Shown piece by piece: positions 22,216-27,660 of a DNA stretch of 64,000 bases. Both the position numbers and the translations under genes were made by a program. Source of the DNA: Candidatus Hydrogenedentota bacterium (GTDB lineage: Bacteria > Hydrogenedentota > Hydrogenedentia > Hydrogenedentales > SLHB01); contig CAXXTH010000014.1 of the NCBI GenBank assembly GCA_963668025.2, positions 76,605-140,604 on the forward strand, in the 5' to 3' direction. Positions within the stretch are counted from its first letter, which is position 1; each line of letters opens with the position of its first letter. The notes under the pieces are model-generated. The model made no database searches, had not been told where the DNA came from, and saw only the letters and a program-made list of their open reading frames with translations.

Positions 22216-23513
22216 CTTCGATTCAGATAGGCGCTTTGGGCATTGTGGTGCTGCTTATTTTTCTGGCCACGAGCATGCCGGTGGCTTTCGCCATGGCGCT
22301 GGCGGGGATAATAGGTTTTGCGGCGCTGGTGAACAGTGACGCGTCCCTGGCGATGGCCACGGGGGAGGTTTATAACACCTTTTCCATGTACAGCCTGACG
22401 GTGATTCCGCTGTTCGTGCTTATGGGCCAGATCGCCTTCCATGTTGGGATTAGTCGGCGCCTATTCAACGCGGCTTATGTCTGGATGGGAGCGCTTCCCG
22501 GAGGCTTGGCGATGGCGACGGTGGGGGCATGCACGGCGTTCGGCGCGATCTGCGGCTCGGGTCCCGCGACGGCGGCCACCATGGCGTCCGTCGCGCTGCC
22601 CGAGATGCGGCGGTACGGATACAGTATGGAGCTGGGCAGCGGTGCGGTCGCATCCGCTGGGGGATTGGGCATTCTCATTCCACCCAGCGTCGTGTTCATC
22701 GTATATGCGATTCTCACCGAACAATCCATCGGCAAGCTGTTTATCGCGGGCGTATTGCCCGGATTGTTCATCGCGGGGCTATTTTGCCTTACGATTTACA
22801 TCTGCTGCCTGCGGAATCCAAAACTCGGCCCGGCGGGGCCCAAGACTTCCATTAAAGAGAAAGTCGTAGCGCTTGGCGGCATTTCAGAAACGCTGGTGCT
22901 GTTCATCGTAGTGATGGGCGGGATGTTTTTAGGCTTTTTTACCCCGACGGAAGCCGCCGCCATCGGCGCTGCGGGGAGCATGGTTATCGCGGCGGTCCAG
23001 CGTAAGCTTACGCCCCGCATGCTGACGCGCTCTCTGCTCGAAACCGCGAGAACCTCGTGCATGGTGCTCATGATCGTGATGGGCGCTACGATATTCGGCC
23101 GGTTCCTTGCCCTGACGCGGATTCCGTTCGAGTTAGCCGAGTGGCTGGGCGGATTACCCTTGCCGGGTTGGATTATCATAGCGTTCATTATAGTGTTTTA
23201 CCTAATCGCGGGCTGTTTTGTGGACGCGCTGGCGCTGGTGTTGCTCACGGTGCCCGTGTTTTTTCCCGTGATCTCGAAGCTGGGATATGACCCGATCTGG
23301 TTCGGCGTTATCATTGTGGTAGTGACCATGATGGGCATAATCACACCCCCGGTGGGGGTTAATGTATACGTGGTGGCAGGCACGGAACGCGATATACCGC
23401 TCAGTACGGTGTTTCGTGGCTCCATGCCGTTCTTGCTCGCACTGATAGTCGCCACGGTGTTTTTAATCGCATTTCCCCAAATCGCCTTGTTCTTGCCGAC
23501 GCTGGCGAAATAG
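22212..23513 (+). CDS. dctM: TRAP transporter large permease
   Basis: IPLFVLMG, GILIPPS, FTPTEAA, YDPIWFG, ITPPVG. Confidence 0.95.
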   Translation: MTSIQIGALGIVVLLIFLATSMPVAFAMALAGIIGFAALVNSDASLAMATGEVYNTFSMYSLTVIPLFVLMGQIAFHVGISRRLFNAAYVWMGALPGGLAMATVGACTAFGAICGSGPATAATMASVALPEMRRYGYSMELGSGAVASAGGLGILIPPSVVFIVYAILTEQSIGKLFIAGVLPGLFIAGLFCLTIYICCLRNPKLGPAGPKTSIKEKVVALGGISETLVLFIVVMGGMFLGFFTPTEAAAIGAAGSMVIAAVQRKLTPRMLTRSLLETARTSCMVLMIVMGATIFGRFLALTRIPFELAEWLGGLPLPGWIIIAFIIVFYLIAGCFVDALALVLLTVPVFFPVISKLGYDPIWFGVIIVVVTMMGIITPPVGVNVYVVAGTERDIPLSTVFRGSMPFLLALIVATVFLIAFPQIALFLPTLAK

Positions 23514-23562
23514 GGCCTGGCGTTTTACAGGTTTGAGGCCATCGTAGAAAAGGAGCCGGAAT

Positions 23563-24057
23563 ATGCCACAAGAATATCCCTCAAGCCCGTACCGGCGGAT
23601 CCTGTTCTGCACGGACTTCTCTACAAACGCCGATTTGGCGTTCGATTATGCCCTCGACGCCGCAGTGCGCAGGCCAGGATGCGTGTTGTACCTGCTTCAC
23701 ATCATTCCCGAACCCGACGCCCAATTCTGGAAAACATATATTTACGAATTGGACGATATCGACGCCAAAGCCAAACAGGATATCAACGCCAAAGTGGCCG
23801 AGATCTACCGCCCACGTGTCCCCGAAGGCGTTGACTTTCGCGTCGAAACGGCCACCGGACGCGACTACCAGCGGATACTCGAGTTCGCCAGAAAGAAAGA
23901 CGTCGACCTGATCGTACTCGGCCGGCATGGGCACAGCGCGCTCGAAAACGTCTTGTTCGGCAACGTCACCGAGAAAGTCGTCCGCAAAGCGAACTGCCCA
24001 GTGCTGGTTGTGCCGATACGCACGAAACCCTCACCAGATACAACAGATTCTCCGTGA
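23563..24057 (+). CDS. Universal stress protein
   Basis: ILFCTDFS; DLIVLGRHG; FGNVTEKVVRKANCPVLVV. Confidence 0.93.
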   Translation: MPQEYPSSPYRRILFCTDFSTNADLAFDYALDAAVRRPGCVLYLLHIIPEPDAQFWKTYIYELDDIDAKAKQDINAKVAEIYRPRVPEGVDFRVETATGRDYQRILEFARKKDVDLIVLGRHGHSALENVLFGNVTEKVVRKANCPVLVVPIRTKPSPDTTDSP

Positions 24058-24067
24058 TCTCGGTCTA

Positions 24068-25305
24068 GTACCCCGTAAGTCCTAAAAGGCTGAATAAAAA
24101 AGTGTATCTTGCCGATATATCCAGAGGGAGGAATGGGTCTTTCCTTTGGAGGATAACGGCAATGCCCACAAAGCGATACGTAGTTCGGTTGACAGAAGAG
24201 GAGCGCCAGCAACTCCATGGCTTGGTAAGCAAGGGCAAGGCGGCGGCATACAAAATCAGGCACGCCAACATCCTGCTCAAGGCAGATTGCGACGGGCCGA
24301 ATTGGAAGGACGAACAGATAGCCGAAGCCTTTGGCTGCCACCGCACCACGGTGGAAGAGGTGCGCAAACGGCTGGTTACGCAAGGCATCGAATCCGCCCT
24401 GGGCCGCAAGAAGCGGGAAACGCCGCCGACCCCGCGCCGACTCGACGGCGACGCCGAAGCCCGGCTGGTTGCCATCGCTTGCGGAAAAGCTCCGGAAGGC
24501 CGGGCGAAATGGACCATGCGGCTCTTGGCGGACAAACTGGTGGAATTGGGGATCGTGGATTCGGTCTCGCACACGACCGTCTGGGAGACGCTTAAAAAAA
24601 CGAACTCAAGCCGCACTTGCGGAAATGCTGGGTGATACCGCCGAAGCAGGATGGCGAGTTCGTGGCGGCGATGGAAGACGTACTTGAAGTCTATAAGCGC
24701 GGCCGGAACCGAGAGTATCCGCTGGTGTGCATGGACGAACAACCGACGCAGCTCTTGAAGGAGACGCGAACGCCCTTGCCCGCCGAACCTGGGGAACCGG
24801 CGAAACACGACTACGAATACGAGCGCAATGGCACAGCGGCGAACTTCATGTTCACCGCGCCATTGGAAAACTGGCGGCGGGTGAGTGTGCGGGAGCGCAA
24901 GACGAAAATCGATTGGGCACAGGAAATCCGCCAGCTTGTCGATACGGATTTTCCCGAGGCGTCAAAGATCGTGCTGGTGATGGACAACCTGAACACGCAC
25001 ACGCCGGGGGCGCTATACGAGGCGTTTGCGCCGCAAGAGGCGCGCCGAATTCTGGAGCGGCGGGAGATTCATTACACGCCGAAGCACGGGAGTTGGCTGA
25101 ACATGGCGGAGATCGAGTTGAGCGTGTTCACGCGACAGTGCCTGGACCGGCGCATGCCGGATCTGGCGACGTTGCGTTCGGAGGCGGTTGCGTGGAACGC
25201 GAGCCGGAACGATTCGGGGATAGGTGTGGATTGGCACTTCACAACCTCCGACGCCCGGGTAAAACTAAAACGGCTTTATCCCTTAATTAAGGGCTGACAA
25301 GGTAC
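24068..25305 (+). mobile_element. Complete IS630-family element
   Basis: Imperfect TIRs GTACCCCGTAAGTCC / GGGCTGACAAGGTAC; TA duplication at 24066-24067 and 25306-25307 within CTAG targets. Confidence 0.93.
24162..25297 (+). CDS. IS630 transposase (HTH orfA 24162-24635 plus DDE orfB, joined by a -1 frameshift at the A7 run near 24594-24600)
   Basis: orfA RYVVRLTEEER...KWTMRLLA; CTTAAAAAAAC slip gives KKNELKPH; DDE motifs CMDEQP, VMDNLNTH, NMAEIE. Confidence 0.93.
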
Positions 25306-25307
25306 TA

Positions 25308-26083
25308 GTGCGACTGCGAGTGTACGCTGTCCGAGAGGTGTGAGTCCTCTTCAGGCATGCACGCTCCGGCCTGTAGCCGACTGTAACTGCGTCGCCGCGA
25401 GGCGGGGTGGAGAGCAACGGAAGGCGAACGGCCAGTCCGTAGGATACGAACTCGATTCGGCCTGATGTTCCGGCGAGCCTGCTGGCAAATGGCGAAGCCT
25501 AGAAATAACCGGTCACGCTAAGGGGTCGTGTGCAAAAGCGATGGCGGGGGAACATGGGGTGGTTGGAGACGGAATGGCCAGGAAGGCAGGGTACATGAAG
25601 CAGTGAGAGCCGCTGGGAGTAAGCAGGCGAGAAGCCACCCAACGGCAGTCAGAGCCGCCATAGTAGCGAGGAAACGCCGTAATGGGCGTGGAGCGAAGGG
25701 CGGTAGGAAGGTGGATGGGTGAGTACGGAATGCGAGGAAATACAACCGTCACCAGTGAACCGCGCAAGCAGTTCTAAACATGCCGGAGATAACCGCCCCT
25801 ACTGGAAGCGAGCGGTCCTTGCGTCTGGACGGAACCCATGTTGGCGGCCCTGAAACAAGGGGTGAAAGGAAGGCGATGGTTCAGCTTGATGGATAAGCAG
25901 ACCATCAATACTGAGCTAATGCTTACTTTGGCGGCCATAGGTCTTTTCAGCTTACAAAAGCCTATGAAACCGCTCGCCAATCCTCCAAGAGGTAAGACCA
26001 CCAACTGGAGAGCCGTATGCGGGAGATCTGCACGTACGGTTCGGAGGGAGGGGAGACCGGCCAACGGTCTTCCCTACCCCTAT
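25308..26083 (+). ncRNA. Group II intron with deleted, degenerate RT/maturase ORF (ORF-less; class E-like)
   Basis: 5' GTGCG; domain III-like GTCAGAGCCGCCATAGTAGCG...GGAGCGAAGGG; domain V GAGCCGTATGCGGGAGATCTGCACGTACGGTTC (26010-26042, AGC triad); domain VI with bulged A at 26076 ending CCCCTAT; RT remnants WTEPMLAALKQGVKGRRWFSLMDK and DHQY*ANAYF/AAIGLFSL. Confidence 0.92.
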
Positions 26084-26196
26084 CGACATTTGGATTTTGG
26101 GCTCATCTCGCTGTCTATAATGAGGCCCCGCCTGAAGCGATCTGGGAAAAAAAGCCGGTTGTGGGAGAATTCATTCCTTCGCAAGAAGCATCAGGA

Positions 26197-26221
26197 GAGA
26201 GCCTTTTCATAAAAGGCTCTC
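26197..26221. terminator. Hairpin, probable terminator downstream of the serine hydrolase
   Basis: GAGAGCCTTTT-CAT-AAAAGGCTCTC, a perfect 11-bp stem about 35 bp past the stop of the minus-strand gene. Confidence 0.5.
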
Positions 26222-26254
26222 CCCTTCATTCACATCCGCGACACGCATGTGGCT

Positions 26255-27394
26255 TTATTCGACGGCCTGGGCAATCAGGAGGTCCGTCATCGTGTCAATA
26301 ACACTTTGCATCTGGTTCGAGATGGTGGTGGGATCGGTCATATCGAGCCGGTTTAATCCGATGAAGAATCCGGCGTGGATTCGAGGAATATATGCCCAGG
26401 TGCCATAATTGCCAGGATTGGCGCCGCCATGGCTCACCACCACCTCTCCCTTGTATGTCTTGACGTTCATCCCATAGCCGTATTGGGTCGCGGGCTCCTG
26501 CACTGTCATCATTTCCGTACGAAGCGGCTCGGAAAGCAGGCAAGGCCCGAACATGACGTTCAGGAAACGGATCATGTCGGAGGCGGTGGTCACACCGGCT
26601 CCGGCGGTCCAGTTCCAGGACAGGTTCCAGTTGGTGACGTTGGACAGTTCCGTCTGATTCAGTAATATGGAGTAGAAATCCGCTGCGGGCGCGGTGGCCT
26701 TGCCGTCCACCACCTCCGTCCGTTCGATGAAGGCGTGGCGGAAGATGCGGTCTTCGAGGGCTTCCTGTACGGTCATGCCCGTGGCTTTCTCGATGATGAC
26801 GCCGAGTATATAGTAGCCCGCGTTGCTGTAGCTGTAGGAGGAGCCCGGCGTGAAGTCCAGAGGATAGCTCGCGATCAAATCCAGCACTTCCGTCTGCGAC
26901 CACACGCGTTCGGGAGTGTTGAGGATGCTGTCCACGAGCTCTGGGGTGCTCTGGTGATCGTGTATCCCGCTGGTGTGGTTTAGGAGCATTCTAACGGTAA
27001 TGAGGCCTCCATCGCTGAACTCACCGGGAAGCCATTGGTCCAGCGTATCGTCGAGACCGATCAACTCCTCGTCAACGAGTCTCAGCATCAATGCAGCGGT
27101 AAAGGTCTTTGTCATGCTAGCCAGGCGCATCTGCATTTCTGGAGTCATAGGCGTCTGGTCTTCGAGCTTCGCGACGCCCGACGCGCCCACCGCCCAGAAA
27201 TTGTCGCAAAACACTCCCATCACGCCGCCGGGAACCCCGGAATCGGTCACGGCCCCATCGAGCACGGACTGGTATTCCGAGGGCAGCGTGCCAATGGGAC
27301 GAATGCAGAGCAAACAACATCCGCTAACGCCGGCCAGCAATGCGAACAAACACACCGGTAAACACATAAAAGAAGTAAAACGAACCCTGTTCAT
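26255..27394 (-). CDS. Serine hydrolase (beta-lactamase / D-Ala-D-Ala carboxypeptidase family), probable lipoprotein
   Basis: SxxK ASMTK; LLNHTSG; YSN; HGG; lipobox-like VSGC; start after AAGGGGA. Confidence 0.9.
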   Translation of the reverse strand: MNRVRFTSFMCLPVCLFALLAGVSGCCLLCIRPIGTLPSEYQSVLDGAVTDSGVPGGVMGVFCDNFWAVGASGVAKLEDQTPMTPEMQMRLASMTKTFTAALMLRLVDEELIGLDDTLDQWLPGEFSDGGLITVRMLLNHTSGIHDHQSTPELVDSILNTPERVWSQTEVLDLIASYPLDFTPGSSYSYSNAGYYILGVIIEKATGMTVQEALEDRIFRHAFIERTEVVDGKATAPAADFYSILLNQTELSNVTNWNLSWNWTAGAGVTTASDMIRFLNVMFGPCLLSEPLRTEMMTVQEPATQYGYGMNVKTYKGEVVVSHGGANPGNYGTWAYIPRIHAGFFIGLNRLDMTDPTTISNQMQSVIDTMTDLLIAQAVE

Positions 27395-27582
27395 ACATAT
27401 TCCCCTTGTTGATGCAGATTTCGACTCAAATGGAAGCTGGCGGACCACAAAACGCAGTGTATCAGTCTGTGTCATCGATACACAATTTCTGCTACTACAG
27501 GGGAGTCCAGATATAGCATGGGCAAGGAATATAGAAGTGGGTTTCCCTCGCTAGAAAAGCAAAAAAAACCGTAACTGAAAAA

Positions 27583-27660
27583 TGGTCGGGGTGAGAGGAT
27601 TCGAACCTCCGGCCTCTTCGTCCCGAACGAAGCGCGCTAACCGGGCTGCGCTACACCCCG
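27583..27660 (-). tRNA. tRNA-Pro(CGG)
   Basis: Minus strand CGGGGTGTAGCGCAGCCCGGTTAGCGCGCTTCGTTCGGGACGAAGAGGCCGGAGGTTCGAATCCTCTCACCCCGACCA; anticodon CGG; encoded CCA. Confidence 0.98.

Follow-up and report, generated by a model that had tools for sequence, protein, structure and literature searches.

Two group II introns of class D (IIB), RmInt1 and RmInt2, are described cases of an intron that is physically joined to an IS630-type element or to the ends of an insertion sequence (IS). For IS630 itself, a preference for the TA within CTAG was reportedly described by Tenzen and Ohtsubo in 1991. In Sinorhizobium meliloti, RmInt1 is reported in ISRm2011-2, which belongs to the IS630-Tc1 group, and RmInt2 in an inverted repeat of ISRm17 (PMC4615759). 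Introns of class C (IIC) are described as following inverted repeats, terminator motifs among them (PMC1702495, PMC4424553), and the specialized IIC-attC introns as inserting at the attC hairpins of integrons (PMC4424553). A group II intron of P. putida is reported to have two of its nine copies at REPs (PMC1525189). Introns that have lost their open reading frame (ORF) are, in the account of one review, uncommon and hardly ever found in a genome that lacks related introns (PMC4424553). Here we analyzed a locus within a 64,000-nucleotide stretch of DNA (hereafter the window) in which an IS630-family element touches an ORF-less group II intron. We regard this contact as a case of mobile elements nested in the ordinary way.

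Anatomy of the junction

The original prediction had described an IS630 end joined with zero spacing to an ORF-less intron of ~776 nt whose first G completes the CTAG target of the IS. Reading of the sequence together with the Rfam model RF00029 and the NCBIfam model NF033545 bore out this anatomy: the IS630-family element at positions 24068 to 25305 directly abuts the intron at 25308 to 26083, the junction string being ...TCGGTC-TA-[GTACCCCGTAAG...CTGACAAGGTAC]-TA-GTGCGACTGCG... (IS in brackets). The left flank of the IS is the 3′ flank of a plus-strand universal stress protein (USP) gene (23563 to 24057; Pfam Usp, 122 bits), and the left copy of the TA target lies at 24066 to 24067, preceded by a C at 24065. 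On the right, the last four bases 5′ of the intron are ACTA (25304 to 25307, plus strand), assigned as IBS1 from the pairing logic in an alignment of relatives. The TA at 25306 to 25307 also serves as the right-hand copy of the IS target, the CTA pairs with EBS1, and the closing G of the right-hand CTAG is the first base of the intron (25308). The 3′ exon begins with CG (26084 to 26085, plus strand), which follows the intron in 4/4 copies of the genome, and the C at 26084 is the putative IBS3.

Farther downstream, a terminator-like hairpin detected by a consensus scan (26193 to 26225) lies between the intron and a convergent beta-lactamase-family gene on the minus strand (26255 to 27475; Pfam Beta-lactamase family, 184 bits). 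The intron and the transposase have the same orientation, and no terminator is predicted between the two. Both flanks in the window are unique in the genome, and thus neither belongs to a repeat unit. Among the listed read-derived contigs of four sequencing runs, none bridges 24065/24066, 25307/25308, or 26083/26084 and none contains an IS-less or intron-less joint. These contigs break at repeat borders, which explains why none crosses 25308, and the junction at 25307/25308 is consequently known from the assembly alone.

The IS630 element and its target rule

The IS body (1238 bp, plus strand) carries imperfect terminal inverted repeats, GTACC...GGTAC, and is one of seven copies in the genome that are about 99% or more identical. 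Its transposase is divided between an N-terminal frame with HTH domains (24162 to 24635, plus strand; Pfam HTH_32, 56 bits) and a catalytic frame (24617 to 25297, plus strand; Pfam DDE_3, 86.9 bits), which scored 67 and 137 bits, respectively, against the IS630 model NF033545 (cut-off, 100). A run of seven A residues at the overlap of the two frames (24594 to 24600, plus strand) is present in 7/7 copies and may bring about a programmed frame change; the use of frameshifting or transcriptional realignment is reported for the IS630 family (PMC5009743). A nested IS200-like element is found inside two of the copies.

The flanks of 7/7 copies read C-TA...TA-G, a pattern that suggests duplication of TA by this IS. 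CTAG is the rarest NTAN in the genome, accounting for 5711 of the 216,485 TA sites (2.6%); since all seven copies nevertheless lie in CTAG, the G supplied by the intron in the window fits a strict target rule. In a table of single-nucleotide differences, the window copy was closest to the C11 copy throughout (2 differences) with no clear mosaic, an absence that has no bearing on recombination. The copy at C10:91106 has its right flank within another IS (element Z) and an unrelated left flank, and these mismatched flanks indicate that rearrangement at these IS copies has occurred in the genome. The left neighbor of the C8 copy is a REP hairpin; on the right this copy lacks the intron, as do all six IS630 copies outside the window at their right ends.

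Structure and coding remnant of the intron

The intron (776 nt, plus strand; GTGCG...TAT) starts with GTGCG at 25308 and ends with ...CCCTACCCCTAT at 26083, in agreement with the GUGYG/AY boundary test, and these boundaries were set by four copies with unrelated flanks. RF00029, which models domains V and VI, matched positions 26008 to 26083 with 56.6 bits (gathering score, 40). Its alignment places domain V at 26010 to 26042, with the AGC triad in GAGCCGUAU, and domain VI at 26045 to 26083 (both plus strand). The bulged A of domain VI is position 26076, which lies 8 nt from the 3′ end. The Rfam models for domains I to IV scored below their gathering scores (RF02001, 26.1 bits against 32; RF01998, 25.0 bits against 35). 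A consensus fold of 10 sequences is multi-domain and contains EBS1 within a terminal loop; combined with covariation, it assigns EBS1 to the UGGC at 25483 to 25486 (plus strand). This loop spans 11 nt and caps a hairpin of domain I.

No RT-domain ORF was found within the intron. However, domain IV retains a remnant of the N terminus of an intron-encoded protein (MLAALKQGVKGRRWFSLMDK; ~20 codons at 25838 to 25897, plus strand), which in a tblastn comparison is 81% identical over 27 amino acids to the intron protein of a relative in genome G009. With respect to that relative, ~1066 nt of the ORF have been deleted, corresponding to a blastn gap at query position 590. Full-length relatives in other genera measure 1844 to 1876 nt and encode an intron protein of ~410 to 460 amino acids with RVT_1 and GIIM (RT and maturase) domains only (TIGR04416, 382 bits). 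The best PDB matches of this protein were 7uim (196 bits) and 6ar1, the GsI-IIC RT (195 bits), and the IIB entry 6me0 scored 172 bits. The intron behaves like a class C intron, and its class was assigned from this behavior and from scores only slightly above that of the IIB enzyme, not from phylogeny.

The genome contains four copies of the intron that are 98.7 to 100% identical. None of the substitutions that distinguish them is private to the window copy, which differs from the C10 pair at 9 to 10 positions and from the C19 copy at 11; the C10 and C19 lineages are separated by 20 to 21 differences, with the window copy at the inner node. Between copies, stem positions have changed in a compensatory manner, which we counted in favor of a functional ribozyme.

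Hairpin targeting and EBS1-IBS1 pairing

The three intron copies outside the window have no IS at their 5′ junction. Each is placed 2 nt past a REP-like GC-rich hairpin, GCATGGGCG-N3-CGCCCATGC followed by TA or CA, so that the insertion site reads YA/CG (the slash marks the intron junction). This hairpin has 86 copies in the genome, most commonly flanked by TACG (27 copies) or CACG (11 copies). A perfect stem of at least 6 bp ending no more than 5 nt from the junction was detected at 11 of the 15 evaluable non-window copies (3 from this genome and 12 from other genera), compared to 1.7% of a background of 5100 random positions. In genome G075, the hairpin that precedes related introns likewise recurs throughout the genome (104 matches versus 0 in a control). 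The actual target of the intron is a REP-like hairpin followed by CYA.

Upstream of IBS1, the hairpins differ in sequence between copies. EBS1 covaries with the last four exon bases among relatives: in 5 of 12 copies, carrying four different EBS1 sequences (UGGC, UAGG, UAGC, and UGGG), all four positions pair, while 4 of the remaining copies pair at three of four positions and 3 pair poorly. Such pairing upholds the EBS1 originally guessed, UGG(C), which is now placed in a terminal loop at 25483 to 25486. The two C10 copies carry UGGG. In the window, the pairing is 3/4 with one G-U and is identical with or without the IS; hence, of the earlier idea that splicing is preserved either way, the part concerning IBS1 stands and splicing itself is plausible.

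The window copy is alone among the examined copies in having no upstream hairpin. The strict stem test found none, and DNA folds covering the site with or without the IS (−1.6 and −3.2 kcal/mol) did not surpass those of shuffled sequences, compared to −16.6 kcal/mol for a REP site. Since a hairpin is missing in both configurations, the insertion of the intron at this position is atypical under every scenario.

Order of insertion

We consider it probable that a hairpin-targeting class-C-like intron came first and that the IS then inserted into the CTA/G at its 5′ junction. The intron, which in its class-C-like behavior recognizes a hairpin (as DNA or RNA) and the 3 to 4 following bases that pair with EBS1, would already have occupied the intergenic DNA 3′ of the USP gene, and the junction before the arrival of the IS would have read ...TCGGTCTA/GTGCG. 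Its CTA/G would have offered a CTAG target in which IS630 integrated with duplication of the TA, thereby bringing the right end of the IS against the first base of the intron. The duplicated TA would restore the CTA before the intron and leave the EBS1-IBS1 pairing unchanged, and the intron may still splice from transposase read-through transcripts. The contact would thus follow from the fact that the last exon bases and the G of the intron together spell CTAG, the only site observed for this IS. The two orders differ in the target they require, CTAG if the intron came first and CTAC if the IS did; the presence of 7/7 IS copies in CTAG favors the former, in line with the suggestion in the original prediction that the IS landed exactly on the 5′ splice site. 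Most likely, the contact arose a single time as a side effect of two target rules that overlap, with no homing relationship.

Two variants of the intron-first order would account for the missing hairpin, and we regard them as about equally probable. Either this copy entered an ectopic CTA/CG site that has no hairpin, or it inserted behind a REP hairpin and its left flank was later exchanged through recombination, or a deletion, between two copies of IS630. Such a replacement would be scarless because all IS copies have identical C-TA...TA-G borders, and the mismatched flanks of C10:91106 as well as the C8 copy, with its REP hairpin on the left and no intron on the right, were counted in its favor. 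With 5711 CTAG sites in the genome and ~4 intron junctions, the a priori chance that 1 of 7 IS insertions would strike such a junction is ~0.5%, which counts against the intron-first order. Searching metagenome contigs for exact matches to the left flank, and separately to the intron 5′ end, gave 0 hits each and hence no empty or IS-less site. Of 53 same-family relatives, 11 preserve the DctM-USP gene pair, and the DNA past USP, which varies between genera, matches neither the right side of the window nor that of the C8 IS copy. In a search of the literature outside subscription journals, we found no account of an IS630 element at the 5′ junction of an intron.

The reverse order, in which IS630 inserted into C-TA-C downstream of USP and the intron then reverse-spliced behind its right end (...GGTACTA/CGACAT, with IBS1 being CTA and IBS3 being C), by chance or through an attraction to IS ends, appears improbable. 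Its ...ACTA/CG site would match the other copies in its 3/4 EBS1 pairing and its CG 3′ exon, the intron and IS are co-oriented with no predicted terminator between them, and introns are on record whose homing sites lie in IS630-family elements or in the inverted repeats of an IS (RmInt1 and RmInt2; PMC4615759). A short AT-rich palindrome, CCCTTAATTAAGGG, is also found 11 nt before the CTA. However, this palindrome folds at −3.2 kcal/mol, a value equaled or bettered by 60 of 200 shuffles, and it lies outside the 0- to 5-nt spacing seen at other copies. An IS-first order also calls for a CTAC target against CTAG for the other 6/6 IS copies, and for two atypical events against one. None of those six IS ends bears an intron, and the G that follows their TA would mismatch an EBS3 reading C. 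IS630 is likewise absent from 3/3 other intron copies, which have unrelated 5′ exons (the first of two observations that the original prediction had asked for in a one-off adjacency), and from 30/30 loci of related introns (72.7 kb), where no IS630-type transposase was found. The two elements meet at 1/7 IS copies, 1/4 intron copies, and 0/30 loci of relatives, and the earlier proposal of an intron homing to the ends of IS630 and hitch-hiking there is not supported.

We also considered a functional IS630-intron composite, in which the IS transcribes the intron or both move jointly and the window copy is the expressed source of the others. The inner-node position of the window intron, which is free of private substitutions among the four copies, and its co-orientation with the transposase, with no terminator predicted in between, would fit this scheme. 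Nonetheless, an inner node is equally expected of an ordinary copy that has diverged little, neither a second IS right end nor an inverted repeat is found beyond the intron, and the arrangement occurs a single time, making such a composite quite improbable. Finally, a misjoining of two repeats at their borders during assembly is hardly credible: both elements are multi-copy repeats and no listed read-derived contig bridges 25308, but contig C14 crosses both of them into unique flanks on either side, 16 copies of a 1.9-kb intron were kept inside contigs, which suggests that repeats were spanned, and the junction follows the CTAG/TA rule exactly.

Discussion

Our analysis favors an intron-first order in which the zero-spacing contact is explained by target rules, CTA/G being CTAG, and a homing relationship is unnecessary. 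The fixed CTAG/TA target gives all IS copies identical borders and hence permits scarless recombination, which makes flanks unreliable for dating insertions. The intron lineage also exemplifies a site choice based on hairpins, with REP-like hairpins in several genera and an EBS1 that covaries with the hairpin tail. A broader scheme, which we offer tentatively and hold to be doubtful as a whole, is that REP-like hairpins of this bacterial order act as landing pads shared by several mobile elements and that the intron lineage, specialized on them, retunes its 4-nt EBS1 to the hairpin tail of each host. In this scheme, the ORF-less derivative, which now has four near-identical copies and lacks a cognate protein, would have been spread by a resident IIC protein with only 36 to 37% identity to its own or by a lost helper, the CTA/G junctions would constitute new IS630 targets, and the IS may transcribe the inner-node copy.

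Several described systems resemble this locus in part. As for RmInt1 and RmInt2, a group II intron is joined here to an IS630-type element; however, those introns home to a long specific site inside the IS via EBS1, EBS2, and EBS3, whereas the window intron lies outside the IS, the association was observed a single time, and the IS most likely arrived second. The IS itself resembles IS630 of Shigella sonnei, which targets the TA in 5′-CTAG-3′, in its TA duplication, CTAG preference, and HTH plus DDE transposase, but differs from it by a two-frame transposase overlapping at A7 and by a nested IS200-like element in two copies.

With ORF-less introns that are served in trans, the intron shares a protein remnant in domain IV and the occurrence of several near-identical copies, yet the present assembly contains no cognate protein. 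Its resident IIC intron proteins are only 36 to 37% identical to the protein of the nearest full-length relative. The genome harbors two further intron families, which resemble the window intron only over 184 nt of domain I (fam3, 62% identity) and over a 41-nt stretch at domain V (fam2), and the confinement of similarity to these two stretches provides no sequence support for a protein-binding site shared with either family. An ORF-less family of this kind could be used to test the range of intron proteins acting in trans.

Class C introns such as B.h.I1 of Bacillus halodurans and the Eubacterium rectale IIC retroelement (7uim) likewise insert right after a hairpin, with an IBS1-EBS1 pairing of 3 to 4 bp and a small domain I, and the protein of the relatives consists, as theirs does, of RT and maturase only. 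In contrast to those introns, the hairpins used here are REP-like repeats without a T-run and not terminators, the present element has lost its ORF, and its window copy has no hairpin. The IIC-attC introns (S.ma.I2) offer a parallel as an IIC-type specialization on a repeated non-terminator hairpin, the target here being a REP-like intergenic hairpin with no integron. REP hairpins are also landing sites of mobile elements in the case of REP-targeting insertion sequences (Tobes and Pareja 2006). Compared to the P. putida intron, 3/4 copies of the intron described here lie at REP hairpins and share one fixed position (YA/CG), and its relatives in other genera use the hairpins of their own hosts.

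An ORF-less group II intron directly follows an IS630-family element

By direct reading, the locus in the window runs ...TCGGTC-TA-GTACCCCGTAAG...CTGACAAGGTAC-TA-GTGCGACTGCG..., with the body of the IS630-family element (the IS) at 24068-25305 and its TA copies at 24066-24067 and 25306-25307. The intron, 776 nt long, starts directly after the right TA, with its first base G at 25308 and its last bases, ...CCCTACCCCTAT, at 26083. The Rfam group II intron model matched domains V and VI at 26008-26083 (56.6 bits versus a gathering score of 40), and the IS transposase is composed of two overlapping frames carrying HTH domains and a DDE_3 domain, both of which match the NCBIfam IS630 model (67 and 137 bits versus a cut-off of 100). 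No reverse-transcriptase (RT) frame was found inside the intron, where a remnant of the intron protein (about 20 codons of the N terminus) begins at 25838. From these boundaries, the model matches, and the missing RT frame, the anatomy described in the original prediction is therefore correct. An A7 run at 24594-24600, where the two transposase frames overlap, is kept in all seven IS630 copies of the genome, which suggests programmed slippage rather than decay. Past a beta-lactamase-family gene, a tRNA gene is located on the minus strand at 27586-27660 (Rfam, 65.8 bits).

The IS obeys a strict CTAG target rule

The source assembly (6.15 Mb in 24 contigs; 93.75% complete), in which the window is contig C14:76605-140604, contains seven copies of the IS, all flanked as C-TA...TA-G, and CTAG is the rarest NTAN of this genome (5711 of 216,485 TA sites, or 2.6%). 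The IS of the window therefore obeys a strict CTAG rule, as does IS630 itself, whose target was reportedly identified as CTAG by Tenzen and Ohtsubo in 1991. The intron is absent from the right end of all six other copies. In two IS630 copies, an IS200-like element of about 658 bp (locus L096; contigs C8:17741-18398 and C6:114373-115031) with a Y1_Tnp match (140 bits) and hairpin ends is nested at an identical site, some 40 bp before the right end.

Other copies of the intron follow a REP-like hairpin

Four copies of the intron are present in the genome (98.7-100% identity), and their ends are fixed exactly because the flanks are unrelated. The three copies outside the window have no contact with any IS630; all three have the hairpin GCATGGGCG-N3-CGCCCATGC, then TA or CA, upstream and CG downstream. 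This hairpin is a REP-like repeat of the family form GCATGGGC-N3-9-GCCCATGC, found in 86 places genome-wide but none near window positions 23500-26500. Its outer flanks are most commonly TACG (27), and also CACG (11), so that the intron position corresponds to YA|CG of the repeat. The hairpin is frequently paired with a second one of the form GCATGGCCGGGACGGCCATGC.

Insertions of element Z (locus L095) also adjoin REP-like hairpins. This 1905-bp IS, bounded by the terminal repeats CTGGAGTTTCT...AGAAACTCCAG, encodes a DDE_5 transposase of 459 aa and is found outside the window, at C10:455514-457418 and in roughly 10 additional places. For two of the four intron copies (C19:180741 and C10:251251), the hairpin at the insertion site directly borders a Z end. 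The Z copy beside the C19 intron is broken by about 1.17 kb of other DNA (C19:177850-179015), which is not IS630 and lies at or near the CTAG that IS630 occupies in two other Z copies.

Related introns turned up in several genera when 41 genomes, and then 133, from the same family and order were searched at the DNA level. Relatives of full length (1844 and 1876 nt) code for an RT-maturase of about 410-460 aa; other relatives are independent ORF-less deletion forms. The 5' flank could be evaluated in 15 non-window copies, and 11 of them showed a perfect stem of at least 6 bp ending at most 5 nt from the junction, versus a background of 1.7% (5100 random positions in the same loci); one copy whose contig ends at the intron and another whose match begins past intron base 1 were left out. 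In G075, a genome belonging to a different family of that order, the hairpin preceding the intron copies is a genome-wide repeat (104 matches with at most 1 mismatch versus 0 for the control). An IS630-type transposase was detected in none of the 30 loci of relatives (72.7 kb). A read-derived contig in sequencing runs X1 and X5 joins window position 25444 to 25990 with 1634 other letters between, its sides being about 90% alike; a full-length relative therefore exists in those samples.

Exon recognition points to a class-C-like intron

In a consensus fold of 10 sequences, GCC[UGCUGGCAAAU]GGC forms a terminal hairpin loop of domain I, and UGGC (25483-25486) co-varies with the last four exon bases among copies and relatives. 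The exon/EBS1 pairs are GCCA/UGGC in the C19 copy and G046, CCUA/UAGG in G118, GCUA/UAGC in G002, and CCCA/UGGG in G132, the G numbers being genomes of relatives. Pairing is perfect over 4 bp in 5 of 12 copies, with four different EBS1 sequences, reaches 3/4 in four further copies, and is poor in three (G009 and two G034 copies). Both the covariation and the terminal-loop position support the EBS1 originally proposed. As also anticipated, pairing of the window copy is alike with the IS (exon ACTA) or without it (TCTA), at 3/4 each way with one G-U pair.

The G009 intron protein contains only the Pfam domains RVT_1 and GIIM and matches TIGR04416 at 382 bits. Against solved structures, IIC enzymes scored best (7uim, 196 bits; GsI-IIC RT 6ar1, 195 bits), followed by the IIB enzyme 6me0 (172 bits). 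The IIC features outlined in PMC1702495 and PMC4424553 include the targeting of hairpins, a short IBS1, a small domain I, and the lack of an endonuclease domain in the protein. We filed the intron as class-C-like on its targeting, short IBS1, small domain I, and the endonuclease-less protein of its relatives rather than on a protein phylogeny.

The intron fold appears to be maintained

The AGC triad is intact in domain V, as is the bulged A of domain VI, 8 nt before the end. Substitutions between copies are mostly compensatory, as in the C10 pair (GGCC/GGCC to GACU/GGUC) and the domain II stem of the C19 copy (UGGG/CCCA to UUAG/CUGA), a sequence pattern that speaks for selection on the fold. 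None of the substitutions is private to the window copy, which forms the inner node of the four.

No cognate intron protein was found in the 93.75% complete assembly. The proteins of two other group II intron families of this genome, fam2 and fam3, share only 36-37% identity with the G009 protein, and their ribozymes are barely alignable to the window intron. fam3 introns (IIC, 1.9 kb) encode their own protein and occur in 16 copies of about 99.3% identity or higher (e.g., C6:51051-52942), mostly after hairpins with T-runs following. fam2 comprises a full-length copy (C10:692596-694485) and four ORF-less copies of about 611 nt (C10:12468, C10:709044, C17:956626, and C18:555013). Head-to-tail pairs occur at C10:694485 and C17:956626, where a fam3 copy starts precisely at a fam2 intron's 3' end.

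The stop of the universal stress protein gene, left of the IS, and a terminator-like hairpin at 26193-26225 bracket the intron. Downstream of the transposase stop, no plus-strand terminator is predicted ahead of the intron, which could possibly be transcribed by transposase read-through. Splicing would have no coding consequence because the intron interrupts no gene.

The window copy lacks the upstream hairpin

Among the copies examined, only the window copy has no upstream hairpin. The strict stem test found nothing in its upstream flank, and the predicted DNA folding energies of that flank (-1.6 kcal/mol without the IS, -3.2 with it) lay inside the shuffle range; a REP site gave -16.6. One possibility is ectopic insertion of the intron at a CTA|CG that had no hairpin. 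Alternatively, it may have stood behind a REP hairpin until its left flank was replaced when two IS630 copies recombined or a deletion occurred between them, an event that would leave no scar because all IS copies share C-TA...TA-G borders. One such case exists in the genome, as IS630 copies C10:251506 and C10:91106 occupy the same CTAG inside element Z, the second with an unrelated left flank; the C8 IS copy, which is preceded by a REP hairpin and has no intron after it, also fits such a replacement. SNPs among IS copies do not separate ectopic insertion from flank replacement. At C10:91106-92341, the right flank is within Z and the left flank is unrelated to it, which points to deletion or recombination mediated by an IS. 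Scans of metagenome contigs for the IS-less or empty site gave 0 hits; read-derived contigs end at repeat borders, and gene order past the universal stress protein gene is not conserved between genera.

The IS probably inserted at the 5' junction of the intron

With the intron already in place, the IS would have entered C-TA-G, the site it invariably uses; in the reverse order it would have entered C-TA-C, a site used by none of the six other copies. The CTAG flanks of all seven IS copies support the earlier proposal that the IS landed on the 5' splice site, and we consider it probable that it did so at the CTA|G junction. The intron would have been present first, and the CTAG-specific IS would then have inserted at this 5' junction. 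The contact is probably a one-off nesting from overlapping target rules. The intron itself adds a new ORF-less member to a class-C-like, hairpin-targeting lineage whose insertion sites are REP-like repeats.

The contact is thus real and well described, and its exciting reading is without support. That the intron homes to IS630 ends and hitch-hikes, as also suggested originally, is improbable, since no IS630 link was found in the other intron copies, the other IS copies, or the relatives' loci, a C-TA-C target is without precedent in the six other IS copies, and the base after the intron is C in all four copies, which the usual IS right flank TA|G would mismatch, therefore making IS ends poor intron targets in general. 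Two introns, RmInt1 (target ISRm2011-2) and RmInt2 (target the IR of ISRm17), are known to home into IS630-type elements (PMC4615759). As portrayed in that source, RmInt1 and RmInt2 are each found at a specific site within many copies of an IS, a pattern different from that of the window intron.
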